Shown here piece after piece: positions 2,202-47,910 of a DNA stretch of 64,000 nt. The stretch lies in assembly GCA_003695985.1 (NCBI GenBank), contig RFFV01000139.1, forward strand, positions 8,669 through 72,668, given 5' to 3'. A program made the translations under genes and the position numbers. Every line of letters begins with the position of its first letter. Within the stretch, counting starts at the first letter, position 1. The notes below the pieces were generated by a model. That model was not told where the DNA came from and made no database searches. It saw only the letters and a list, made by a program, of their open reading frames with translations. Source of the DNA: Cyanobacteria bacterium J007 (GTDB taxonomy: Bacteria; Cyanobacteriota; Cyanobacteriia; Cyanobacteriales; Laspinemataceae).

Positions 2202-5200
2202 TTACGAGCTTCTTTCCTCCAATAGAGCCTCTTTAACCCGTTCCCATTCGGCGCGCAAGCGAGGCTCGAACTCCGAAACGGTCTCGGGGAGGGCAACCCC
2301 CGCCTCGACACAATGGCGGGCGATGCTTTCTAAATCTTTACCGATCCGAGCTAAGGTTTGAGCGCCGAAGGTGGCACTGGTAGACTTAATCGTATGAGCG
2401 GCTAACTGTAGTCGGGGGATATCGGCAGAGGAGATCGCCGTCCCCACATCCGTCAACCGTTGGGGCAGATCTTTGAGATAACTGTCGATCGCATCGATCA
2501 GCCCTTCGGGGTCGTCTTCTCCGACCAGTTCTTTCAAATTACTCAATCCTTTAGGATCGAGAGCGGGTTCGAGGGTTGGAGTGTCATTCGTTTCCATCGT
2601 TTGGGGGGGTTCCGTCGTCGTTGCTAGCACAGTTTGCGGCGTGGTTTGCGCGCCGTTTTGCGCGATCGCCATCTCGCATCGACCCAGCACCGCACTCAAC
2701 GCCTCGATCCGGATCGGCTTGCTCAAATAATCGTCCATCCCCGCATTCAAACACAACTCGCGATCGCCTTGCATCGCATTCGCCGTCATCGCCACGATCC
2801 ACGGTCGTCCCACCGGAGAAACATCCTTGCGTTGGCCCCACTGCTCGCAAATGCGCCGGGTCGCTTCCAGACCGTCCATTTCCGGCATCTGCACGTCCAT
2901 CAGCACCACGTCGTAACTCTGACGCTCCAAGGCTTGCAGCACTTCCACCCCATTCGCCGCCACGTCGGCGCGATACCCGAGGCGCTGCAAAATCCGCAAG
3001 GCCACTTTCTGATTGACGACATTATCTTCCGCCAAGAGAATGCGTAAATTGTTCTCGATGGGGGTGGATGCGGTGGGAGGAGGGGAACTGCGAGGCTTGG
3101 CGGGAATCGAAATCCTCGAAAAAATCCGCACTAAAACATCGTAGAGCTGGGATTGTTTGATCGGCTTGTTGAGAAACGCCGCAAAACCGAGCTCGGAGGT
3201 TTTGAAATCTTTCGCTTGTTTGCCGATCGAAGTGAGCATGACCAGGGGAAGTTGCCGTCCTTTCTCGTGGGTGCGGATGGCACTAGCGAGGGCGAGTCCG
3301 TCCATTTCCGGCATTTGCATGTCGAGAATCGCCAGATCGAAATCGTTGTTTTCCGCGTTAGAAAACAACGCCAGCGCCTCGAAGCCGGAGGACACCGCCT
3401 GGGTTACCATCCCCCAAGAACGGCCTTGTAAGGTTAAAATCTTGCGATTGGTGGCATTGTCGTCCACGATTAACAAGCGTTTGCCTTCCAATTTCGGGGC
3501 TTTTCCAACGTCGATCGCCGGATCGACGTCGGTCGCTTCGGGAACGGCGATCGTAAACGAGAACGTCGAGCCGACCCCTTCTTCACTCTCGACCCACATC
3601 CTGCCGCCCATCATCTCGCACAAGCGCTTGCTAATCGCCAAACCCAATCCGGTGCCGCCATATTTACGGTCGATCGACGAATCCACCTGGGAGAAGGACT
3701 GGAACAGGCGATCGAGACGGTTTGTGGGAATGCCGATCCCGGTATCGCGCACGGAAAATTCGAGTTCGTAAATCGGGCTGACTTCTTCAGACAACCCGCG
3801 ATCGCACGCCCCCACGCCAACCGAGACGACCACTTCGCCGCGATCGGTAAATTTAATCGCATTACCGAGTAAGTTGACCAGAATTTGGCGCAGGCGGGTC
3901 ACGTCGCCGAGGATGCCGACGGGAACCTCGGGATCGACGTGGTAAGCGAGCTCCAACCCTTTTTCTATCCCTTGAGATGCGAGTAAATCGAGACATTCCT
4001 CGATGCAAATTCGCACATTAAACGGATGTCGTTCCAGTTCGAGTTTGCCCGATTCGATTTTAGAAAAGTCGAGGATGTCGTTGACGATCGTCAGCAGCGC
4101 ATCCCCACTGGTGCGGATGGTTTCGACGAAATCGCGCTGGTCGTGGGTCAAGTCCATATCCAATAACAAGCCCGTCATCCCGATTACCGCATTCATCGGC
4201 GTGCGGATTTCGTGGGTCATATTGGCGAGAAATTCGCTCTTGGCGCGATTGGCGGCTTCGGCGGCGCGTCGGGCTTCTTCTAAGGCGGTATTTTGGGCGG
4301 CCACTTGCTCGCGGGCGCGGGTTTCTTGTTCGAGCAAGTCGGCTTGAGCTAAGGCGATCCCGATTTGTTCGGCGACGGCTTCGAGGAGGTCGATTTCTTC
4401 CACGGTCCAGCGTCGGAAGCGATCGCACTGGTGCAAGCCGATCAGACCGTTGGGTTCGTTTTTATAGGAGGTTCGCACCGAGAGCATCGATTTGACCTGC
4501 AGTTGCTCTAATAACGGCTCAAATCCTTTAAATAGGGGTTCGCTGTAAACGTCGGTGGCGGCGATCGCGCGATCGCCGCCCAACACTTTTTGAGCGTGAG
4601 CGTTGTCGGTGACCGGAACTTCGGTGCCGAGTAACGAGCTGTATTCCGGTTCCAAATATTGCGCCACTAAGGGCATCGTCGGTTGCGGTTGCTCGACATA
4701 GGTATGAAGGAGACAACGATTGACGCCGAAGGTTCGACCGATTTGGGTGACCGCAATTTGAAAGATCTGCTCGGCGTCGAGACTTTGGCGAATTTCTCGG
4801 GTAATTTGACCGAGTAAGACGCTGCGTTTCAACTGGCGCTGGAGGGCGCTTTCGGCGCTGTTGCGTTCGATTTCGCTGCCTACCCACTGGGCCATCAAGC
4901 GCAGCAATTCGCGATCGACCGCTCGGAATTTCTGGGTTCGGGGATGACGGCTGACGAAGCTCAAGGTACCGTATACTCTGCCGCCGACGAGGATTCGCAT
5001 TCCCGCGTAAGCTTGCCAACCGCGCAGGCGACAGGCGGGGTGTTCCCCCCATTCGCAATCGGCGGCGGATTCGATAATGTTCGGTTCGGCAGCATAAATA
5101 GTGCTGCTGCAATAGGTCAGCTCTAAGTTGAAGGCGTCCCCTTTGACCGGGCGGATCGGGCTTTCTGGGGTGACCCAGGCGGCGATGACTTCGTAATAGA

Positions 5201-8183
5201 CGTTGGTAAGGCGTTCGCCCGAGGCGATCCGGCTCCCTTCTCCTTGATTGCCGAATTCCCCGGCGTCTACACAGCCCACTAAGCCGATTTCCGCGTCAAA
5301 CCGACGGCACCCCATTTCTAGCAGTTGGGTCAGTCGCGCGTCAAAATCGAGATCGGCAGAAGCGGTCACGGTGTAGAGGGCGCGAATGGCGGCTTCGCTT
5401 TCTTGCAGGGACTCGATCAGGTGCAGTTTTTCCGCTTCGGCTTGTTTGCGTTCGGTGATGTCGTTGAGGGTGCCACTGGTGCCGTTCATTTGCCCGTTCT
5501 CGTCGCGCATTGCCTGGGCGAATACCTGGAACCAGCGCACGTTACCGTCTTTGGTCAGGTAGCGCAATTCGGCTTGACAGGTGTCTTTTTGGCCGAGGTT
5601 GAGAGCTTCTAAATGGGCGATCGCGATCGGGCGATCGTCGGGATGCAAGTAATCGACGCACGATTGACCCAGACTTTCCTCAACACTGAAGCCGAGACTG
5701 GCGGACCAAGCGGGATTGAGAAAGGTCCAACATCCGCCCGCGTCGGTTTGAAAGATTGTTTCTTCGATCGTGTTGACGACGGAGCGATATTTTTCTTCGC
5801 TTTGGGCGAGCGCTTGTTCCATCGATTTGCGATCGCTGATGTCGGTAATCGTACCGACATAGCCTTCGATCTCGCCGTTGGCGTCGATTTCGGCGATCGC
5901 CTGTCCGATGACCCAACTGATGCTCCCATCGGCGCGTAAAAACCGATATTCGCTCTTGAACGGCTCGTTTTTGGCGACGGACTCGAACCAGTCTCGGAAA
6001 ACGCGATCGCGATCGTCCGGATGCAAGGATTTTGCCCATCCTTCCCTTAGTGCGTCTTCTAAACTCAATCCGGTAATGTCTTGCCAGCGTTGGTTGACAT
6101 AAAGACAGTTACCCTCGGCGTCGGTGCGGAAGATACACACGGGCGAGGCTTCGCTGAGGTTTTGATAGCGCCGTTCGCTTTCCCGTAGGGCTTGTTGGGC
6201 GTGGCGGCGTTCGGTAATATCTTCGACGGTGGCGATCGCCAGATGCGGCTGTCCTTGGGCGTCGCGCACGATCGAAACGGTCAGGTTGCACCAAATTATC
6301 TCGCCGTCTTTACAGATATAGCGTTTTTCCAGTTGGTAGCGATCGCGGGTTCCGGCGCCGATCTCGGCAAATAACGGTTTTTCGAGTTCGAGATCTTCGG
6401 GATGGGTAAACTCTTCATAGCCCATGTTGGCGAGTTCGGTTTCGCTGTAGCCGAGCATTTCTTGAAACGCCGGATTCGATTGCAAAATCCGCCCGTCTTC
6501 CAAGTTACCCAAGACGATGCCGATTCCGGTTCCTTCGACGATCGCCCGCAAGTGGGCTTCGCGTTCTTCCAAAGACATGATTAACTGGTTTTTTTCTGCT
6601 TCCATTCGTTTGCGTTGGGTGATATCTTGGGTCAGCACCATTCCCGCGAAGATACTGCCGTGTTCGTCGCGCACGGGTAAGGTTCGGGTCAGGTAAATGC
6701 GATCGGTATATTCGATTTCGTTGGTAATTGTTTCTCCGCCAAGGGCTTTGCAGTAATCATCGACCACCGCCTCGCAGGTTTCCCGGGGGAAGACTTCCCA
6801 AATCGTTTTGCCCTCCATTTGCTCTTTCGACAGACCCACGGTTTCTAAACCTTGTCCGTCCACGAGCAGGTAGCGCAAATCGCGATCGAACAAGACCACG
6901 GCCCCTTCGGGAAAATTGCGGGTAAAGGTACGATACAGTTGTTCGCTTTCGCGCAAGGCGGTTTCGACGCGCTGGCGATCGCCAATTTCTCGCTTGAGTT
7001 CGGCGTTGGCGATTTCGAGTTGGGCGGTGCGTTCGCGGACCCGATTTTCTAACTCGGTGGTGAGTTTTTCGATTTCGGCTTCGGCTTTTTTACGTTCGGT
7101 AATTTCTTCGACCGTACCGATAACGCACTCCGGAATCCCTTCGTGATTTTTGATGTTGGAAACAATCAGACGAACGGGAATAATTTCTCCGGTTTTACGA
7201 ACGTAGCGTTTCTCGATCTGATAGCTTTTGCGCGCTCCTTGCAACAGTTGACCGACGAGTTCTCGTTCTCGTTCTATATCTTCTTCGTAAGTGAATTTTG
7301 CAAACGAAATTCCTTCTAATTCGCTTTCGCTAAACCCAAGCATTTGTTGTAAGGCGGGGTTCGTTTTGCTGAGAATTCCTTCGACACTGGCGATCGCTAT
7401 CCCCAAGGCGGCTTCTTCAAAGAGGGTCCGAAATAACGATTCGCTCTGTCTCAATTCTTGTTCGATCCGTTGGCGCTCTCGGATCTCTTTTTCTAATTCC
7501 CGATTGCTCGCTTCGAGTTCGCCGGGACTCGGAAAGTCGAGGGCTTTCGCTTTGAAAAAGGCGATCGTTCCTACGGTGGCGACGGCGATCGTGGCGGCTC
7601 CTCCTTTAATTAACCCGGAAATCCAATCGATCGAATACCATAAATTCCATGCCTCGATAAAGTGGACGATCGCTTGAGAAATGATCAAGGCTCCCAAACA
7701 TAAAACCATCCGCTTGTAAGGTAAGTCTTGCCGTCGGCGCATGAAGTCAATTAACAGGACGGCGATCGCCAAATAAGCTAACCCCACGACGATTTCCGAC
7801 CCTTCGTGTAACCCAATAGAAGCCCATTGTCCGGTGTCGCTTCCTATCTGGGCGATCGCGAAGCGGCTCCCTTGGAGCATCGCCGCCAGCAACCCGGGCC
7901 AATGTCCTAGAATTATTGCAAGGGTCGTGGGGGGTAACTCAAACATTCCGGGAGACATGGGTTTTAAGGATTGAGAGAAAGGAGATGCAAGCAGCGCTTG
8001 TCTCGGCGTCAAACACCTCAGCAACGTACCGATGGGTAGAGCCGTCAAAATCGGGCGATCGCCCTTACGGGTGATGTTACCGACGAGCATTGATGCGATT
8101 TGCACTCTCTCCCACTTTAGCTTGAGTGCGCCGGACGAACCTCCCCAAAAATACCCATCCGGTTTTACGCAGATCCTCCGCAA
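2202..8183 (-). CDS. Very large hybrid sensor histidine kinase with two receiver domains and a C-terminal HPt domain. 8183 gives the longest ORF; internal ATGs at 7958 or 8090 are alternative starts.
   Basis: 1993-aa ORF. Domain order: membrane-spanning N-terminus, coiled coil, multiple PAS and GAF repeats, HisKA H-box ([25 protein letters not shown]), HATPase_c, REC1 ([10 protein letters not shown]...DMQMPEMDG), REC2 ([13 protein letters not shown]...DVQMPEMDG), and HPt ([13 protein letters not shown]). Confidence 0.9.
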
Positions 8184-9241: not shown

Positions 9242-9490
9242 GATCGCTTTGCTAGATGTTCTCTTTAATTGTCCCTTGTCACGAGCCGTTGGGGGGAAGG
9301 AGCCGAAGACAAGAAGCAAAAATCCATCTCCATCGGTATCGTCAACTGTGGCGCGGTTATTTTGCCCGCCGCTTCCCCATTCCTCTAGAATGCAGGAACT
9401 ACAGACATCTTTATCGATTTAAACCCCATTTTCTGAGCAATTGCGCTAAATTTTAGCAAATAAATACTTTAAAAACCAATTTTTTACTTT

Positions 9491-9524
9491 AAATCTAAAC
9501 TCTAAACTCTAAACTCCAAACTCC
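9491..9524. repeat. Heptamer tandem repeat (TAAACTC, four units).
   Basis: aaatctaaactctaaactctaaactccaaactcc, upstream of the Hsp70-like gene. Confidence 0.6.
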
Positions 9525-9611: not shown

Positions 9612-11210
9612 ATGTCCGGGTACAAAATCGGCCTCGATTTCGGGACGACGAACTCGATTATTTCTTATTTCACCTCCTCCGCCGAAGTAGAAGCCTTTCA
9701 ATATGGCGGTCCCGACGGTCGCCGCTATATTCCCTCGTTTATCGGCTACGACGAGGAATTTGTCGAAATTGGCACCGCCGCGCGGACTCTCGCCGCCAAT
9801 CACGGGGATGTGGAAACTTACGGCAATTTTAAAATGCGCTTGCCCATTCCCGCCGATCGATTGCCGGAGTACATTCGCCACGATCGCACCCCCGCCAGCG
9901 TCACTACGGATTACTTGCGCGAACTGCTCGTTTCTGAGGAAAATCCTTACAGTTTTTGCAAACAACAAGGGGAAATCTCCGGTCTGGTGGTCTCGGTTCC
10001 CGAAATTTGGCAGCGCGATCTTTACAATCGCGGACGAGAATTGTTAAAACAGGCGATCGCCGCTCTCGATTTGCCCCTCATTCAATTGGTCAGCGAACCC
10101 GTCGCCGCCGCCGCTTACTATACTTGGGACATGCAACGACGGGCAAAAGATGCGGGAGATGAGAGTTTTTCGGGAAATCTCCTCGTGTGCGATATGGGTG
10201 GCGGTACGTTTGATGTGAGTTTATGCCGAATTTACGGGGAACAAAAAGTCGATGTCCTCTATTTTGACGGACAGGGCGATCGCGGTCTCGAATCCGCCGG
10301 GGTAGCTTTCGATCGCCGTTGCGTGCAAGCAGCTTACAAGGCAAAGCACGACTCGACCCTCGACGAAAACGACCCGGAATTCCTGCGCCTGTTACGGGAA
10401 TTTGAAACGGTCAAAATCGGCTCTCACGCCCGCGTGACGCGATACCTCACAAATGCCGTGTGCGAGCCGGAAATTTACGGCGATCGCCAGATTTACGTGT
10501 TTGCCGGGGGGTATTCCCTCAATTTCGCACAAGTGTGCGAGGCATTCGCACCGATCGCCGCCGGAATTACCGCAGTCATCGAACGAGTCCGAACCTGGAT
10601 CGCCGAACGACAACAGACGATCGATCGCGTCTTCCTCGTCGGCGGTTTTTCTCAGTTTTTCCTCGTCCGACGGGCGATCGCCTCAGCCTTACAATTCGCT
10701 ACAGACGATCCCCGTCTCGACGCAACCTTTAACCTCACCCACAGCGCTTATGCGATCTCCTACGGCGCCTGTTTGATCGCCAACGATCGCGTCCAACCCA
10801 GCGAAAAATATCTGCACAATCTCGGGATCGTGGTCGATACCATCGACGCCAACGCCGAACGCCAACGCCGCGCGATCGAAATTATCAAAGGTGGCACCCG
10901 CTTGGAAGAGTTATCTCAACCCCAATTTGCCGATATTCCCCCCTTAGTGACCTTTCAACAAGATGCACCCTTGACCCTCACCCTCTGGGTAGACCCCCAA
11001 GGAAAAGGCGTCTTGGTCGAAGAATCCTTACCGGAGATGGTGAAGTTACCGAGTTATTCTCCAGAGGATAAATGGCGGGTGGGAATGCGCGTCGATCGCT
11101 CTCAAATTGCTTATTTAACCATTGAAGAAGTTCGCGGGGAAAAACGAGTGGAATATGAGTTAGGCAATGTTTTAGCGAAAATGTTTCCCGGTTTCGTGTT
11201 AATTGAATAA
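9612..11210 (+). CDS. Hsp70-family (actin-fold) ATPase, non-canonical. It lacks the typical DnaK substrate-binding domain.
   Basis: 532 aa. N-terminus IGLDFGTTNS matches the Hsp70 phosphate-1 motif; CDMGGGTFDVSL matches the Hsp70 signature DLGGGTFD; the connect-2 motif is LVGGFSQ. Confidence 0.8.
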   Translation: MSGYKIGLDFGTTNSIISYFTSSAEVEAFQYGGPDGRRYIPSFIGYDEEFVEIGTAARTLAANHGDVETYGNFKMRLPIPADRLPEYIRHDRTPASVTTDYLRELLVSEENPYSFCKQQGEISGLVVSVPEIWQRDLYNRGRELLKQAIAALDLPLIQLVSEPVAAAAYYTWDMQRRAKDAGDESFSGNLLVCDMGGGTFDVSLCRIYGEQKVDVLYFDGQGDRGLESAGVAFDRRCVQAAYKAKHDSTLDENDPEFLRLLREFETVKIGSHARVTRYLTNAVCEPEIYGDRQIYVFAGGYSLNFAQVCEAFAPIAAGITAVIERVRTWIAERQQTIDRVFLVGGFSQFFLVRRAIASALQFATDDPRLDATFNLTHSAYAISYGACLIANDRVQPSEKYLHNLGIVVDTIDANAERQRRAIEIIKGGTRLEELSQPQFADIPPLVTFQQDAPLTLTLWVDPQGKGVLVEESLPEMVKLPSYSPEDKWRVGMRVDRSQIAYLTIEEVRGEKRVEYELGNVLAKMFPGFVLIE

Positions 11211-11216
11211 TGGAAA

Positions 11217-11236
11217 TTTTAGATTTTAGATTTTAG
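11217..11236. repeat. Heptamer tandem repeat (TTTAGAT, three units).
   Basis: ttttagattttagattttag, in the spacer between the Hsp70-like gene and its coiled-coil partner. Confidence 0.6.
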
Positions 11237-11271
11237 GGTGAAGAGAGAAGCCCGCGCTCTATTGCGTAGCA

Positions 11272-12357
11272 ATGAGCGTCGGGTACTTCACATTGGCTCT
11301 TTACTCCCCCTTACCCATGTCCCTCGATCTCCTCGCCCAATCGATCGCCCGTCTCCAACACCTCGCCTCTGAGGACGAACGCCCCTTGTTGACCTTCGAG
11401 ACGATCGCCCTCCCGTTGCAATGGCTCGAAATTCTGCTCGATGTTTGGGCACAACTCTATCCACCCGAGGTTTTGCAACAGTTGGACGCGACCGAACCGG
11501 AAACCTTGGAAGCGTGGGCGATCGCCCTCACTCGCGCCTTAGACGCCCAACTGCAATGGCTCGATCGCACGGGCGCGACCCTCGATCGCCTCTCGTTATT
11601 AGACGCCCTCCAAACCAAAATCGGCGATCGCGCCCGCCAATTACAACAGTTGCGCGCGCAACACAGCGAATTGCTGACAAAAACGGGCGAATTTTCGGCG
11701 ATCGATGGCGACATGCGCGACGCGATCGCCGAATTAGAGCAACTGCAACACGAAGCAGAGCAATTCGACCGACTGCGTGGGGAGTTGGAACGCACCGATC
11801 TCGATGGCTTGCGCGCGTCGATCGCCCGCGATCGCGCCGTCTTGGCACCGCAACAGGCGCAATTGAGCGAACTGGAGCGCGAAAAAGCGGATCTCGACGG
11901 TCAAATCGAGCAGTTACGGCGTCAGCAGTCCCAACTCGGTGAAGAAATCGAATTATTGCGCGGACGGCGCGATCGCCTGCAATTGCGAACTGAAGAAACA
12001 GCGAAAGCGGCGATCGCGGACTACGCCCGACAGCGCGATCGCCTCGGCGACAGCTTACAACAGCTCTTAGACGAACTCGACTCCCAACGCCGGGAGTACG
12101 ATCGGGTGCGCGGCGAGTTGGATCGGGCGATCGCCGAGTCGAACGAGTATCAAACGGCGATTCGACAGGGGCGCAACGCCCTCGAAACCCACTATCGCAC
12201 CGATGTCGAACTCGGGCGCCGTCTGCCGACCAATGGGTCGGCGATCGCCCGTCTGGTCGGGGCGATCGAGGAAAATTTAGCCGCCTTAGACCGGGAACTC
12301 GCCCGGGCGCAACAGGAGAATGAAGCGACCCGGGTCAAGCAAATTTTTACGTTTTAA
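11272..12357 (+). CDS. Coiled-coil protein, Q/L/R/E-rich, partner of the Hsp70-like ATPase.
   Basis: 361 aa, 61 bp downstream of the Hsp70-like gene on the same strand. Long heptad-like runs (QLQQLRAQHSELL..., LERTDLDGLRASIARDR..., LDGQIEQLRRQQSQLGEEIELLRGRRDRLQLR). Confidence 0.6.
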   Translation: MSVGYFTLALYSPLPMSLDLLAQSIARLQHLASEDERPLLTFETIALPLQWLEILLDVWAQLYPPEVLQQLDATEPETLEAWAIALTRALDAQLQWLDRTGATLDRLSLLDALQTKIGDRARQLQQLRAQHSELLTKTGEFSAIDGDMRDAIAELEQLQHEAEQFDRLRGELERTDLDGLRASIARDRAVLAPQQAQLSELEREKADLDGQIEQLRRQQSQLGEEIELLRGRRDRLQLRTEETAKAAIADYARQRDRLGDSLQQLLDELDSQRREYDRVRGELDRAIAESNEYQTAIRQGRNALETHYRTDVELGRRLPTNGSAIARLVGAIEENLAALDRELARAQQENEATRVKQIFTF

Positions 12358-12991
12358 GGGGTAATCCCCGGCCCGTTTTGGCGAAGTCTTCGACGGTTTT
12401 ATCGGAAAACTCGTGCTGGGCGATCGCCGCTAACATCGGCAACGGTAAGGTCAAGTGGTCGGCGCCTGCTTGTAAGGCGGCGGCAGCTTCTTCGGGAGAC
12501 TTGATACTGGCGGCTAAGATTTCAACCCCACTATCTTCGAGGATCGCGGCCATCTCGCGCACGAGGGCGATCCCGTCGCCTAAAAGCCTCGTGGCGCGGT
12601 TGACGTAGGCGATCGCGATTTTGGCTCCGGCTTCCCGGGCGATCGCCGCTTGGATCGGTCCGTAAATCCCGGTCACCGAACAGGTCATCTCTTTTGAAAG
12701 AATGGCGACGGCTTCAAATCCGGTCGGCGTGGCGGGAATTTTGAGGACGGTGCGATCGCCGATAATCTCGTAAGCTCGGCGTCCTTCGGCGACCATTCCA
12801 GGAACGTCGCCAGCTAGCAATTGATAGTAAAGCGGACCGTCGGCGAACGGGAGTAAGTTTTTCAAGGTCATTTCTGGCGGATCGTCGCTTTGCGCCAGTA
12901 AGGTCGGGTTGGTGGTGATTCCTTTGACCCAGCCGAGTTTTTGGGCAGCTTTGGCATCGGCAACGATCGCCGAATCGAGATAAATGGCCAT
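12347..12991 (-). CDS. Transaldolase-family protein (fructose-6-phosphate aldolase / short transaldolase type).
   Basis: 214 aa beginning MAIYLDSAIVADAKAAQKLGWVKGITTNPTLL...; its size and N-terminal motif match FSA/TalC. It converges on the coiled-coil gene and overlaps its end by 11 nt. Confidence 0.75.
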   Translation of the reverse strand: MAIYLDSAIVADAKAAQKLGWVKGITTNPTLLAQSDDPPEMTLKNLLPFADGPLYYQLLAGDVPGMVAEGRRAYEIIGDRTVLKIPATPTGFEAVAILSKEMTCSVTGIYGPIQAAIAREAGAKIAIAYVNRATRLLGDGIALVREMAAILEDSGVEILAASIKSPEEAAAALQAGADHLTLPLPMLAAIAQHEFSDKTVEDFAKTGRGLPLKT

Positions 12992-13100: not shown

Positions 13101-13679
13101 TTACTCGGGAAAAATCTTGGTTAAAGAGAGCAAAGAATCGGGAAATCCAGGGAGAGGAATGGCTTCGTTGATGAAGGGAATTCGTTTGGTTCGATAGCCG
13201 AATTTTCCGGGGCTGAGTTCGTCGGGTTCGCTGTAAATTTCTAAATATTTATCGTTTAAATTGAAAATCCAATAATCTGAAATTCCCGCTCGGGCATAAA
13301 GGGGTTGTTTGATGGCGCGATCGTATTCGAGAGAGAGTTCGTCCGCAATTTCGATCGCTAGTAAAACTTCACTGGCTTGGGGTAACCGGGCCCGATAGTA
13401 ATCGTCGGCATAGGCTAAAATCGCGAAGTCCGGTTGCACTTCGGTATTCTCGTTGAGAACGATCGCCTCTTGGGTTTGCACGAGGGCGCGTTGGGCGACA
13501 AACACGGGCAAGTCTTCTAATAAAGCACGCAAACAAGCAGCGTGGTCTTGGCCGATCGGAGCCATCTGCACCAGGGTTCCTTCTACGAGTTCGACGGCTT
13601 CGTCTTCTTTGAAAAAGCCGCGATCGGCCAGGTTGTGATATTCGTCGATACTCAAGATTTGTGGTTGAGAATTGGTCAT
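13101..13679 (-). CDS. Uma2-family (DUF820) putative restriction-endonuclease-like protein.
   Basis: The QILSIDEYHNLADRGFF...ELVEGTLVQMAPIGQDHA... pattern is typical of the many cyanobacterial Uma2 paralogues. Start chosen at the internal ATG at 13679; the ORF extends to 13715. Confidence 0.75.
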   Translation of the reverse strand: MTNSQPQILSIDEYHNLADRGFFKEDEAVELVEGTLVQMAPIGQDHAACLRALLEDLPVFVAQRALVQTQEAIVLNENTEVQPDFAILAYADDYYRARLPQASEVLLAIEIADELSLEYDRAIKQPLYARAGISDYWIFNLNDKYLEIYSEPDELSPGKFGYRTKRIPFINEAIPLPGFPDSLLSLTKIFPE

Positions 13680-14622
13680 CGCTGCTGTGTGTTTTTTGGC
13701 CGTTTCAATCAACAAAGGATTTGTCGATTATTTTAATATAAAAGCTTGAAAATTCCCGAAGTTTCAGTCTCCCTGCAAGCTTTGTGGACGTCCTTCAAGA
13801 TCGCGTCTGGCGGCTTGGAATGACGGGCTAATTCGTCGAGGGTGGCGTTCTCGTAGGGTCTCTAAAGGAGAATCGCTGACTCTCGATGAGCGGCTTTGCC
13901 AAAGGGATGTCAGTCCGGTTCGCTAGCGAGTAATTCCTCGCCGATCGTTGAAATTTTCCACGGGGATCGGTGAAATTTCCCGTCGTTTTCCAGGGCGATC
14001 TTCACTTGTGAGAGCAAACCCAGCCCGGGCGCCCTTGAAGCCCTTGGCACCCACTCCCAGTTTAGCCGATCTCTCCGTCGATTCACGAAGGGTTTGCAGG
14101 GAATGTTGGGCGATCGCCCCCGATGGTTTGACCCCTTTTTTACCCGAGTAGACGATCGATTCGTGATTTTTAAGGATCGAATCGCAAGTCAACTCGTAGA
14201 ACGGTTGATGACCTTGGCTCGATGTTTTTGGCGGGGGCAATTTTTACAATAGAATCCGATAGAAACCGATCCCGATCCAAGCCGATCGATTATTTGAGGA
14301 GGATGACATGCAAATGACGAGTTCGCCCCATTATCGCAACGAGATCGAACCCCTCGTCGCTGCCGAAGTCGAACGGTCATCGAGCGCTTGACCGTTACAA
14401 CTTGGCCTTTAGATCGACCCGAATCGGGCGATCGCCTACGCCCTCAATCCCTTGTCTCCCCTTGACTCCACCTGCATTTGAGGCTGGAACTTACAGCAGC
14501 AACGAGCCCTGACCGAACTCGATTCCCCAGTCGAACGAGCCGTCCGAGGGGCGTTCGCCGCCGTTTGCTCCGATCCGTTGCGAACGACTAATGTTTGTCA
14601 CCAATACGATTAAAATTAAGAT

Positions 14623-17535: not shown

Positions 17536-20409
17536 TTACTCGGGAGAACATAAGTCCATGATGTGAGGCGGCGAACTGGCACCGGACGATCGCGCCGCCG
17601 TCAGCAAGATTTGGCCGTCGGCAGTGCGATCGAAGCCGCGCGCCTCGATTAAAGGATCCGAAGGGCGATCGCGGGATGAGTTGGCCGCCGAGGGCGTCTC
17701 CCGGGTCTCCCAGATGGGTTCGACCAACTCCACCGACACCCCGTCGCGGCTGAGGGGTTGACCGGGATTGACGGGTAAGCCGCCGCGTCCGCGAATGGCG
17801 AAGCTACTTTCGGCGAGTTGTTCGGGATTGCAGGGGCTGCGCGCGATCGCCGCATCCGGGTCGGCGACCTCGACTTCGGGCAGATTGGCGGGTTCGATAT
17901 CGATATCGCCGTCAATATTTAACTGCCCTCGGGCATTGATAATACTGTCGGGAGAGAGTAGAACTAATAACTCGTCTCCTCGGATGGCGCTAATGGCGAT
18001 ATTGCTGCCTCCTTGAGGGTCCGTGGCGCTGGTGACGATCTGGCTGGCTTCGAGCAATACCAGGGTTTCGGCGGCGATCGTGATATTGCCTTCCTGCGTA
18101 ATATTCCCGGTTTGACTGCCTGCGGCGACAATTTCGCTGCGATTGCGTAAGAGAATATCGGGCGATCGCAGGTCAATATTACCCCCTTTTCCGATCGCCG
18201 ATGACGCTTGCAAGGCGCCGCGATCGAGTTGCACGTCCGACGCCGCAATCTCAATATTGCCTGGGGTTCCCGTCCCTTCCCCGTTGACGCCGATCCGGGA
18301 TCCGTCGGCCACCTGGAGGCGGTCCGTGGCGATCGCGATGCCCCCGCCATTGCCCGATCCGAGGGTGCGCGCGTCAATTTGAGCATTCCCGACGATTTCG
18401 ACGCTTTCCGTCGCCTCTAAGCGCAAACGGCCCGCATTCCCTTCCCCAGAGGTTCCCAAGAGCACGATCGCCCCGTCGCCCACCCTCAAGCGGGGAGTGG
18501 CGATCGTCACGTTCCCCGCATTCCCCGCCCCGTCGGTATCGGCGGTGATTAAGGTCGGCAAACTGCCATCCGGCGAGGTCCCTCTAAACTCGATCGCCTC
18601 CGACGCCTCCAACAACATCAACCCGCCGACCCCGTCCACCGAGGTACTCGTCCCGATTTCGCCGCCATCGCGCACGATCAAACGGCGGGTTCTCACGGTC
18701 ACGTCCCCGGCGTCTCCCGACCCGAACCCTTTCGTCGTCAGCAAACTGCGTTCCCCGTCCGCACTGACTCCGGCAATATCTACTAACTCGGCCCCCTCGA
18801 TCTCCAGTCTGCCGCCCTTTCCCGTCCCGTTGCTGGCGGCTTCGATTTGGGCGCCGTCGCTCAAACTGAGTAGGGGGGTGACGATCTCGATTTCCCCCGC
18901 CTCGCCACTGCTGTAAGCGGTCGCCTCGATTTGGGTCGATGTTCCGGTTTGGGGGTCGGTTCCGCTCAACTGCACCGATTCTGAGGCGCGGATGGTCAAG
19001 TTTCCTCCCCGTCCCGGGCCGAAGGTTCGAACGCGCACTTGGGCGCCGTCGCGCATCGTCAGGCGCCGGGTGGTAATATCGACATTGCTGGCGTTACCGA
19101 CTCCGAGGGTGGAAGCGTCGAGGATGCTGGCGAATTGGCCATTTATGGGAATGCCGCTTAATTCTACCGATTCTGAGGTGGCGATCGCGATCGTTCCCGC
19201 TTCGCCGTCGCTGACGGTTCCCACGGTAATCCAGCCGCCGTCCAACACGTTTAATTGGGTCCCACGCACTTCGACGCTACCCGCATCGCCATTGCCGAAG
19301 GCGCCGGATCCGACGATCGTGCGAGAGGTGCCATCTCTGGAAATCCCGCTAATTTCGACGACTTCCGACGCTTCTAGGGCGATTTCGCCCCCATCTTCCT
19401 CGCCGAGACTGTCGGAACGAATTTCCGATCCTCCGGTAATGGTGAGATTGCGCCCGTGTACGCGGACGCCGCCATCGCCGCCCAACCCGGTGAATAAGCC
19501 GGATTCGTTGGTGATGGAGATATCTTGAAATGAGGATAAGGGGGAGGTTTCTTCAAACCCGAATTCTCCTCGTTCTCCCGTCGTTCTCAGTTGTCCGTTG
19601 CGACCGGACCACAACTCGATTCGACCTTGGGGGGCTTTTAATAAGGCCCCGTCTAAGACAATCGGACCGCCAACGAGGGCTAAGGTGCGATCGGGTCGAA
19701 CCCCCAACCCGTCCTCGCGGGCGAGAATGCTCAGTTGAAAGGCGATTTCTTGGCGCGCCGTTTCGATGTTCTGGGTCGCCGTTTCGGTTCCGTCGAAATC
19801 TGAGGTGGCAAAACCGCGCCCGAGTCCGATTCCGTTGATGGCGATCGCCCCGGGATTGTCGCCCAATTGCAAGCCGACGGGAACGCTAACGGTGAGCAGG
19901 GTGTCGGTTTGAGGGGCGATCGCGCTAAAATGGCTGCCGTCGTCGAATAAGACCGCTTCCGCACTGGTTGCAACAAAGGAACCGCCTACATTTAAGGAAG
20001 CATTCGGTCCGAAAACGATGCCGTTGGGGTTGATTAAGAAGAGGTTGGCGCCGCCGTTGGCTTGGAGGAGACCGTCGATGTTACTCAGGTCGCTTCCGGT
20101 CACCCGCGAAAAGATATTTTCGATCGTCCGGGGGTTGTCGAAGGTGGCGGTTGTTCCGGTAGGGATCGAGAAGCTTTCAAAACTGTGGAATAAATTGCGC
20201 GATCGCGCCGTTCCTCCGGTAATCTGAATTGTATTTCCTTCGACGGTGACCGTGGAGCGATCGGGTAAGGTCGCATCGGGTACGATTTGAGCGATCGCCT
20301 GTCGTTCGATCGTACCCGAAGAGAACAGGGAACAGGCGATCGTTGCGAACAAAACCGTTCTCTGCAGACCCGTAGAGGTTCGCCGTCGTGTTGTTGTAGC
20401 TTTATTCAT
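17536..20409 (-). CDS. Filamentous-haemagglutinin-type exoprotein with an N-terminal TPS (haemagglutination activity) secretion domain and a beta-helical repeat body.
   Basis: 957 aa. Signal peptide, then TVEGNTIQITGGTARSRNLFHSFESFSIPTGTTATF, which is the TPS NPNG/NLFHSF region. After that come Gly/Ser/Thr-rich repeats. Confidence 0.85.
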   Translation of the reverse strand: MNKATTTRRRTSTGLQRTVLFATIACSLFSSGTIERQAIAQIVPDATLPDRSTVTVEGNTIQITGGTARSRNLFHSFESFSIPTGTTATFDNPRTIENIFSRVTGSDLSNIDGLLQANGGANLFLINPNGIVFGPNASLNVGGSFVATSAEAVLFDDGSHFSAIAPQTDTLLTVSVPVGLQLGDNPGAIAINGIGLGRGFATSDFDGTETATQNIETARQEIAFQLSILAREDGLGVRPDRTLALVGGPIVLDGALLKAPQGRIELWSGRNGQLRTTGERGEFGFEETSPLSSFQDISITNESGLFTGLGGDGGVRVHGRNLTITGGSEIRSDSLGEEDGGEIALEASEVVEISGISRDGTSRTIVGSGAFGNGDAGSVEVRGTQLNVLDGGWITVGTVSDGEAGTIAIATSESVELSGIPINGQFASILDASTLGVGNASNVDITTRRLTMRDGAQVRVRTFGPGRGGNLTIRASESVQLSGTDPQTGTSTQIEATAYSSGEAGEIEIVTPLLSLSDGAQIEAASNGTGKGGRLEIEGAELVDIAGVSADGERSLLTTKGFGSGDAGDVTVRTRRLIVRDGGEIGTSTSVDGVGGLMLLEASEAIEFRGTSPDGSLPTLITADTDGAGNAGNVTIATPRLRVGDGAIVLLGTSGEGNAGRLRLEATESVEIVGNAQIDARTLGSGNGGGIAIATDRLQVADGSRIGVNGEGTGTPGNIEIAASDVQLDRGALQASSAIGKGGNIDLRSPDILLRNRSEIVAAGSQTGNITQEGNITIAAETLVLLEASQIVTSATDPQGGSNIAISAIRGDELLVLLSPDSIINARGQLNIDGDIDIEPANLPEVEVADPDAAIARSPCNPEQLAESSFAIRGRGGLPVNPGQPLSRDGVSVELVEPIWETRETPSAANSSRDRPSDPLIEARGFDRTADGQILLTAARSSGASSPPHIMDLCSPE

Positions 20410-47600: not shown

Positions 47601-47800
47601 TAGCGATCGAAAGGACAACGAAAAAATAACCGGATCGATCCGGGTCGTGCTAGCTCGCGCTGCTCGCTTCGATCGCCATTGTAAATGATGGGTAACTCAA
47701 GTCGGGAGCAAGATGCTCCCACAGGGAACAAGATCTTCCCAGGACCGAGGGGTTGAGCTAGGCAAGCCGGACTCAACGGATTGAGAAATGCTATACAATC

Positions 47801-47854
47801 GAAAATCTAAAATCTAAAATCTAATTTAAAATCTAAAATCTAAAATCTAATTTA
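47801..47854. repeat. Heptamer tandem repeat (AAAATCT units with AATTTAA spacers), STRR-like.
   Basis: aaaatctaaaatctaaaatctaatttaaaatctaaaatctaaaatctaatttaa. Confidence 0.8.
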
Positions 47855-47910
47855 AAAGGCGGCCTTGGGTTTAACATAAACCAAAGATAACCCCTAAAGA
47901 AAAACAACGA

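Follow-up and report, generated by a model that had tools for sequence, protein, structure and literature searches.

The 64-kb stretch of DNA analysed here (contig RFFV01000139.1 of Cyanobacteria bacterium J007; referred to below as the window) carries adjacent genes for an Hsp70-type ATPase and a long helical protein (its partner), and our analyses make it near certain that this pair represents two of the three core genes of a gene set spanning at least five bacterial phyla. The core of this set comprises a lidless Hsp70-type ATPase, a helical protein of ~350 amino acids (aa) and a ~200-aa radical S-adenosylmethionine (radical-SAM) enzyme with a relationship to the glycyl-radical activases, often with a sensor-like variable gene in front. 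We favour, at a probability of roughly 45%, the interpretation that the window pair is the ATP-driven clamp and the adaptor of a regulated conflict- or stress-type system, and not a part of general protein folding. No curated family or PADLOC model covers the gene set, and no description of an Hsp70/coiled-coil/radical-SAM set was found in the literature searched, most subscription journals lying outside the coverage of the search. An earlier note, made from the DNA letters alone, had described a two-gene module; the pair itself is borne out by our work, but the radical-SAM gene that usually follows it and the variable gene upstream had been overlooked.

The evidence for this gene set comes from synteny. 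We fetched 78 genome loci encoding relatives of the ATPase (the relatives' loci are numbered with the prefix L below), 43 of which were informative in that they contain a full-length family member and at least 2.3 kb of downstream sequence. A partner-family gene is located directly downstream of the ATPase gene and on the same strand in 28 of these 43 loci, a ~200-aa radical-SAM gene is present in 23, both are present in 22 and neither in 14, six of the latter being near-identical Laspinema-type loci. The partner homologs score 114–190 bits against the window partner in ~27 loci. The typical order, on one strand, is ATPase, partner and radical-SAM gene, with the latter two a few bases apart or overlapping. 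Many cyanobacteria carry the complete trio, which is also found in Acidobacteriota (L059), Desulfobacterota (L048), Bacteroidota (L064) and Bacillota (L068, L070, and L071); in L068, its middle gene scores only 16 bits against the partner hidden Markov model (HMM). As a reciprocal test, loci were anchored on the radical-SAM gene, and ~15 of the best 80 metagenome loci had an Hsp70-like gene, a partner gene, or the two upstream; these include most of the closest radical-SAM relatives on contigs long enough to judge. The conservation of the partner beside the ATPase, on which the earlier note had made its proposal depend, is thus borne out. Its notion that the Hsp70-fold ATPase is a non-canonical orphan whose syntenic partner is dedicated to it likewise accords with the adjacency in 28 of 43 loci and with the small size of the partner family (see below).

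In the window, the ATPase gene occupies positions 9612..11210 of the + strand (532 aa; 56.8 bits against Pfam HSP70) and the partner gene positions 11272..12357 (+; 361 aa), with a spacer of 61 bp (11211..11271, +) between them; these open reading frames (ORFs) and the length of the gap are as earlier described. The start of the partner is ambiguous: one JGI annotation places it at M16 (window position 11317), which gives a 346-aa form, while a second one has the 361-aa form, and the two Oxynema strains compared below are identical across this stretch. The window DNA matches JGI contig Ga0181961_1203912, and the filamentous cyanobacterium Oxynema aestuarii has an 'Hsp70 family protein' with 100% identity to the ATPase. 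The boundary of the module is formed by a convergent transaldolase/FSA-family gene (12347..12991, − strand), which overlaps the stop codon of the partner.

The nucleotide-binding domain of the ATPase (residues 1–390; 9612..10781, +), recognised from its invariant columns and from hhalign comparison with Escherichia coli DnaK, carries the Hsp70 motifs that had been pointed out previously, viz. GLDFGTTNS (residues 7–15), DMGGGTFDVS (residues 194–203), and LVGGFSQ (residues 342–348). The best PDB sequence matches of the protein are the nucleotide-binding domains of DnaK, Ssb and BiP (E ~1e-11). In 24 diverse homologs, D9, G11–S15 (phosphate-1 loop), K74, E162, D194, G196–D201 (phosphate-2 loop), and G344–G345 are invariant, and D9, K74, E162, D194, T199, and G344–G345 align to D8, K70, E171, D194, T199, and G341–G342 of DnaK (hhalign probability 99.2%, with a DnaK sequence entered by hand). 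Because all of the mapped DnaK catalytic residues are invariant, the ATPase should bind and hydrolyse ATP, and it is probably catalytically competent.

The ATPase is placed outside of the characterised Hsp70 subfamilies by its scores of 47–61 bits against the DnaK/HscA equivalog models, more than ten-fold short of the cutoffs of 620–1019; membership of such a subfamily was the second circumstance that the earlier note had named as speaking against its proposal. The best NCBIfam matches are to HscA (61.4 and 58.6 bits; cutoffs 708 and 620), and those to DnaK reach 51.1 and 47.8 bits (cutoffs 648 and 822). Full-length relatives are 37–72% identical to the window protein and family members are 516–553 aa long; the family HMM scores ~800 bits among the cyanobacterial members. 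Neither protein of the pair falls in a specific curated family (Pfam, NCBIfam, or PADLOC), in agreement with the earlier statement that the pair has no assigned function. A candidate for membership of the ATPase family is slr0086 of Synechocystis, which is annotated as 'similar to DnaK protein' and shows mild induction by ethanol.

In an AlphaFold2 (AF2) model of the ATPase (predicted local distance difference test score, pLDDT, 85.6), the C-terminal domain is all-beta, with its strands within residues 403–516 (10818..11159, +), and as modelled it does have the fold of the Hsp70 substrate-binding beta-sandwich. This identification rests on a fold-level test, the sequence-level tests failing, since the beta-sandwich is unrecognisable by sequence and both the PDB profile search and hhalign to DnaK align residues 2–390 only. 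The last beta-strand is followed only by a 7-residue helix (residues 518–524) and the protein ends at residue 532, which leaves no alpha-helical lid. The earlier claim that the C-terminal 150 aa resemble neither the beta-sandwich nor the lid of DnaK is thus correct for the lid but not for the beta-sandwich, whose fold is present in the model. The segment between the two domains, PSEKYLHNLG, conforms to a family motif PxEKYxH in which E398 and H402 are invariant; its counterpart in DnaK is VLLLD, an equivalence that is positional, as the DnaK sequence alignment ends just before the segment. The model as a whole resembles the ATP-state, docked conformation of Hsp70, and its likeness to Sse1 most likely reflects this conformation and not a specific relationship, Sse1 being a eukaryotic Hsp70 exchange factor with a long lid and insertions that is 15% identical to the window ATPase.

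The closest known relatives of the ATPase are the canonical Hsp70s (DnaK, HscA, and HscC). They share with it the nucleotide-binding domain, the substrate-binding beta-sandwich (in the case of the window protein, as modelled), the invariant catalytic set and the GG of the adenosine site. The window ATPase differs from them in being only ~17–25% identical to DnaK and below every curated cutoff, in its lack of a lid, in the family motif PxEKYxH that stands in place of the VLLLD linker, and in its genomic surroundings, where it has no nearby J-protein and is linked to a helical partner and, elsewhere, to a radical-SAM enzyme.

Two further features of the ATPase were recorded. Cysteines C193 and C205 (window positions 10188–10190 and 10224–10226) flank the phosphate-2 loop (LLVCDMGGGTFDVSLC) and are invariant in 24 of 24 aligned members, the DnaK residues at these positions being Y and I; they could represent a redox or metal site, a candidate of interest beside an Fe-S enzyme companion. 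The invariant segment WRVGMRV was considered as a glycyl-radical site and rejected, the motif being unlike RVxG[FYW] and the domain a beta-sandwich with no glycyl-radical-enzyme barrel.

The partner is all-helical and without beta-strands in its AF2 model, with helices at residues 14–33, 38–62, 65–74, 76–105, 111–174, 178–317, and 322–360. An alignment of the syntenic homologs divides it into conserved N- and C-terminal regions and a variable centre. The N-terminal region (residues 1–105; 11272..11586, +) is marked by the sequences FETIxLP...PEVLxQL...AWAIAL and shows no heptad periodicity; the C-terminal region (about residues 290–361; 12139..12354, +) is marked by HYxxDxxLGxxLP...DxELAxA...F. 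The central region (residues 110–317; 11599..12222, +) is characterised as a long-helix, coiled-coil-like region by the model, a heptad test and weak matches to coiled-coil families. The partner might alternatively be a filament or scaffold coiled coil of filamentous cyanobacteria that is remodelled by an ATPase of the actin/Hsp70 fold, a reading to which we give a low probability; heptad periodicity, judged by a single-register Fourier test, is evident for residues 110–175 (z 4.6) and is not significant for the helix 178–317. In Pfam, NCBIfam and PADLOC the partner matches many unrelated coiled-coil families (SMC, Rad50, JetC, and LmuB) weakly and far under cutoff. The suggestion that it is SMC-like does not hold, as the SMC and Rad50 matches (18–26 bits; cutoffs 567–1000) involve low-scoring coiled-coil segments only, and the 361-aa protein contains no P-loop domain and thus no ABC ATPase heads of the SMC/Rad50 type.

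The partner belongs to a small family. An exhaustive HMMER search of 1.84 billion cluster representatives retrieved 113 proteins at E ≤ 1e-3, 75 at E ≤ 1e-10, and 47 at E ≤ 1e-30, nearly all of the members being 330–360 aa long. Word-index homology searches returned two proteins with the single sequence and four with a 20-sequence profile, generic coiled-coil words crowding the candidates, and the homologs used here were taken instead from synteny in the fetched loci and from the exhaustive representative search.

The earlier note had also suggested that the partner could be a nucleotide-exchange factor, and a role of this kind (as a GrpE-, BAG- or SMC-like co-chaperone of an orphan Hsp70) would be in keeping with its conserved position as the same-strand neighbour of an ATPase near which the window encodes neither a J-protein nor GrpE; the known exchange factors GrpE and BAG are also largely helical. 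We consider it very unlikely, however, as the partner has no GrpE or BAG match in Pfam (E ≤ 1) or in the PDB profile search (E ≤ 1; generic coiled coils only), a question decided by the profiles, the model of the partner being too poor for a fold search. The model, moreover, shows no counterpart of the GrpE beta-domain, and the Firmicutes versions of the gene set have a separate GrpE-domain gene upstream and yet keep the coiled-coil partner.

A co-chaperone is also not expected to have the architecture in which the C-terminal half of the partner (about residues 150–354) is found elsewhere, viz. fused behind NB-ARC plus TPR arrays or behind TPR arrays alone, which take the place of the N-terminal region. 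In one locus (L164) and in the mobilizable plasmid pCAL6303.02 of Calothrix PCC 6303, the gene order is Hsp70-like gene, fusion and radical-SAM gene, the plasmid genes carrying the NCBI names 'Hsp70 family protein', 'tetratricopeptide repeat protein', and '4Fe-4S single cluster domain-containing protein'. One fusion copy adjoins a Mu-type transposase. The possibility that the NB-ARC-TPR fusions are a switch that replaces the Hsp70 was ruled out by L164 and the Calothrix plasmid, which both retain the Hsp70-like gene upstream. The C-terminal half of the partner may therefore be viewed, from its distribution, as a constant adaptor element that accompanies both the ATPase and the radical-SAM enzyme.

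The protein encoded by the third gene is a radical-SAM protein of ~200 aa of the Fer4_12 type (E ~1e-30), in which CxxxCxxC and GGEP are invariant and which has a conserved C-terminal extension of ~45 aa. It scores 93–101 bits against NrdG (cutoff 126) and lower against the PFL activase model, and it matches PFL-AE structures at E 2e-16. In common with the glycyl-radical activases (NrdG and PFL-AE), it is a small Fer4_12-type radical-SAM protein with CxxxCxxC, GGEP and a DG..(x)..RGSxNQ region; it differs from them in falling below the 126-bit NrdG cutoff, in its additional C-terminal extension, in its occurrence in oxygenic cyanobacteria, and in that no glycyl-radical enzyme is found among the 25 most frequent neighbour families of the set. 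These families were counted in a census of 120 neighbouring proteins from 26 loci that carry the three-gene set. In the same census, PADLOC PD-T4-6 matches 7 of the 120 neighbours (best E 1.6e-45), and GUN4-domain neighbours also number seven.

In front of the ATPase gene, the variable position is taken, depending on the locus, by a gene for a TPR or NB-ARC-TPR protein, a double-AAA ATPase (IetA-like in PADLOC), or a GUN4, FGE-sulfatase, coiled-coil or GrpE-domain protein. An N-terminal domain of ~90 aa, with no Pfam match in the scanned proteins, is common to a number of the upstream genes (L013:3801–5753, L016:4726–5847, L019:3167–5779, L022:2321–3211, and L040:4835–5926); it forms fusions with GUN4 or TPR regions, occurs twice in tandem in L019, and in L013 is encoded ahead of an ATPase gene of the Laspinema type, where the other two core genes are lacking. 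In L041, the ATPase is followed by a TPR-CHAT protein. Some genomes (Aetokthonos, Scytonema, and Arthrospira) have several copies, and in Aetokthonos hydrillicola (L014:4305–9565) two tandem lidless Hsp70 paralogs (537 and 538 aa) face a convergent partner and radical-SAM pair whose partner is longer (424 aa).

The presence of a [4Fe-4S] radical-SAM protein in the set raises the alternative that the ATPase and its helical co-factor are a dedicated maturation chaperone, acting on the radical-SAM enzyme by inserting or repairing its cluster or by folding it, by analogy with the action of HscA-HscB on IscU. HscA provides the best curated matches of the ATPase (61 and 59 bits, slightly above DnaK), and the three genes are tightly packed in many loci, with gaps of 1–4 bases or overlaps. 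We nevertheless consider such a role unlikely: the HscA scores are far under cutoff and barely above those of DnaK, the partner has no J domain or HPD motif, and the NB-ARC/TPR fusions and variable sensor-like upstream genes would not be expected of a maturation system. Purifying selection also maintains the pair in the window and in L081, where no radical-SAM gene is linked to it, and such layouts recur in L010, L044, and L045. Conversely, the radical-SAM family occurs without any Hsp70 beside HerA-like, TerD or other genes. These Hsp70-free contexts are themselves conserved (L084–L163; e.g. L124:2131–6600, L128:4129–6621, and L110:870–6633), and in them the radical-SAM gene is accompanied by a HerA-like ATPase and two unknown genes, follows three TerD-domain genes, or, in gut metagenomes, follows a trio of genes for proteins of 377 aa, ~920 aa, and ~450–550 aa, the last coiled-coil-like. 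A PADLOC search of these contexts yielded the generic HerA ATPase only and no catalogued defence system.

The version of the gene set found in Oxynema differs from the typical one in having no linked third gene. No radical-SAM homolog was detected anywhere in the 64-kb window (tblastn, best E 0.13), and the transaldolase/FSA-family gene sits where other genomes have the radical-SAM gene. A second strain (L081) shows the same two-gene layout, with protein identities of 98% for the ATPase and 95% for the partner. The ratio of nonsynonymous to synonymous substitution rates (dN/dS) between the window and L081 is 0.15 for the ATPase and 0.34 for the partner, as compared with 0.15–0.19 for the neighbouring genes, each estimate resting on only 27–36 substitutions per gene, and indicates purifying selection on the pair within the Oxynema lineage. 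Layouts with the partner and without the radical-SAM gene are also present, independently, in L010, L044, and L045.

The absence of the radical-SAM gene from the window, together with a stepwise break-up of the set in the closest relatives (both of the other genes are missing from the Laspinema ATPase loci, and the radical-SAM gene from L010), could also be taken to mean that the third gene was lost in Oxynema and that the remaining pair is a functionless remnant heading for loss. We regard this as improbable, as two diverged strains have both ORFs undamaged and at full length, with dN/dS values comparable to those of their neighbours, although the small number of substitutions limits the power of this comparison. 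Laspinema, which has the closest relatives of the ATPase (71% identity), has neither of the other core genes, nor remnants of them, beside its ATPase gene; in Laspinema sp. D1, however, a partner homolog is present at a separate locus, and a radical-SAM gene of the same type (71–73% identical to others of the type) lies 3.7 kb further on, beside an ortholog of the FSA-family gene. Because Laspinema encodes the three genes at separate loci, the set has been broken up by rearrangement in this lineage with all three genes retained at least in Laspinema, and separation of the genes does not imply their loss. In Oxynema the radical-SAM gene, unlinked from the pair, was lost or is located elsewhere in the genome as in Laspinema; no contig of the Oxynema record is among the best 80 metagenome radical-SAM loci. 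The FSA-family gene itself recurs beside pieces of the set, being found after the partner in Oxynema (12347–12991, −), after the ATPase in L015 (2547–3176), and beside the radical-SAM gene in Laspinema (L083:12086–12727). Because it adjoins these pieces in three related lineages, its distribution suggests that it was inserted into the operon in their common ancestor.

The physical interactions, the direction of control and the role proposed for the gene set are our reading of the observed gene structure, fold, catalytic residues, synteny and purifying selection. Binding and hydrolysis of ATP would open and close the beta-sandwich of the ATPase in a DnaK-like manner, and the lidless clamp would probably hold a dedicated segment of a partner protein and not a wide range of unfolded clients. 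The helical partner would be either the client of the clamp or an adaptor that delivers the client. The ATP-driven rearrangement would then act on the radical-SAM enzyme by gating or positioning it, or on another output in Oxynema, the output of the complete systems presumably being radical-SAM chemistry. A conflict- or stress-type role for this assembly is suggested because a constant core is combined with variable sensor-like modules, because there are associations with NB-ARC, TPR and CHAT domains and a patchy spread among phyla, and because some genomes have multiple copies, with one copy on a plasmid and one beside a transposase.

Of the known systems, the gene set comes closest to the HSP70-containing DO-GTPase/GAP1-N2 conflict systems (Kaur, Burroughs, Iyer, and Aravind, 2020, eLife; PMC7159879), which are defined by paired TRAFAC GTPases and GAP1, with FNIII-repeat, DnaJ or tubulin components. 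The two types of system have in common a constant component of the Hsp70 family, variable TPR and other modules, a GrpE that is sometimes co-encoded and a proposed role in conflict or immunity (PMC7159879). They differ in that no GTPase or tubulin gene is found in the Pfam annotation of the window or among the recurrent neighbours of the set, the comparison being judged via the GTPases as GAP1 has no model in the libraries used. No HSP70/radical-SAM pairing is described in that work, whose single mention of radical-SAM concerns FtsH ternary systems (PMC7159879).

A number of observations weigh against a conflict- or stress-type role. No significant match was obtained in PADLOC v2.0.0 (ATPase to PDC-M61B, 12–17 bits; partner to JetC and LmuB, ≤23 bits; radical-SAM protein to pVip, 17–18 bits), and neither transposases nor restriction-modification genes are enriched among the 25 most frequent families of the neighbour census. 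The genes around the window pair are ordinary chromosomal genes and form no defence island. No member of the family was found on viral contigs, and the plasmid carriage found is limited to one copy. The ATPase and the radical-SAM protein, at 57–78% identity across cyanobacterial orders, are unusually conserved for immune genes, and the survival of the unlinked genes in Laspinema suits a housekeeping role at least as well. The breadth of the set and the model of the partner also call for caution, as the 'partner' genes of L064, L070, and L071 were identified by position, size and composition only and not by HMM score, and the partner model, made from a 5-sequence alignment, is of low confidence (pLDDT 63; predicted template-modelling score, pTM, 0.26). 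In the absence of the presumed output enzyme from the window, the mechanism in Oxynema is the least certain part of the proposal.

A more specific form of this proposal, which we put forward as a doubtful possibility, is that an immune-like system uses the Hsp70-type clamp as its nucleotide-driven switch, in the position otherwise occupied by a STAND, AAA+ or GTPase switch, with an activase-like radical-SAM protein as the effector and the partner coupling variable sensors to it, the effector in Oxynema being unlinked or different. If so, the target of the effector's radical chemistry would be a protein or a nucleotide, and the reaction would proceed even in oxygenic cyanobacteria.

The 61-bp spacer between the two genes has no terminator-like or promoter-like site on the + strand, which fits co-transcription of the pair, although the scans gave no more sites than in shuffled sequence. 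It is 100% identical in the related strain L081, while the two coding regions differ by ~3% in their DNA. The three-unit heptamer repeat earlier reported in it is present as three copies of ATTTTAG at 11216–11236. This repeat belongs to a family consisting of ATTTTAG, its reverse complement ATCTAAA, and the variant GATTGTA, which forms arrays of 3–8 copies in at least five intergenic places; the other arrays, composed of the ATTTTAG unit or its reverse complement, are at 9486–9523, 38338–38384, 40105–40157, and 47797–47857. The first of these, upstream of the ATPase gene (9486..9523, strand not assigned), is a tandem array of 5.6 copies of ACTCTAA that is related to the reverse complement of the spacer repeat. 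Because the arrays recur at other sites in the window, the heptamer is a dispersed intergenic repeat of the genome and probably not a functional part of the module. We take it to resemble the dispersed short tandem repeats (STRR-like) of filamentous cyanobacteria.

Other genes near the pair were also noted. Upstream, a gene on the − strand (2202–8183) encodes a hybrid sensor histidine kinase of 1993 aa by ORF (1962 aa according to JGI), which has an ETR1_N-type N-terminus and many PAS domains, the C-terminal receiver and HPt regions having been judged by eye. A putative endonuclease of the Uma2 family (13101–13715, −) and a 957-aa protein with a TPS (two-partner-secretion, haemagglutinin-like) domain (17536–20409, −) are encoded a few kb downstream of the pair. 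The TPS and Uma2 genes are not widely recurrent near the gene set elsewhere, Uma2 accounting for 2 of the 120 census neighbours.

The annotation of the window has thus gained two of three core genes of a gene set, which are retained under selection without the third. No curated family, structure or paper was found for the lidless Hsp70 branch to which the ATPase belongs, although Hsp70s are among the best-studied proteins, and the same holds for its dedicated helical partner and for the radical-SAM enzyme that usually accompanies it. The gene set is small and well defined, and the presence of a plasmid copy in the sequenced strain Calothrix PCC 6303 makes it directly testable. If the association of these genes is functional, it would link ATP-driven peptide clamping to radical-SAM chemistry, a pairing for which no report was found, and it would provide a new type of core for the multi-gene systems of multicellular bacteria that combine a constant core with variable sensors.

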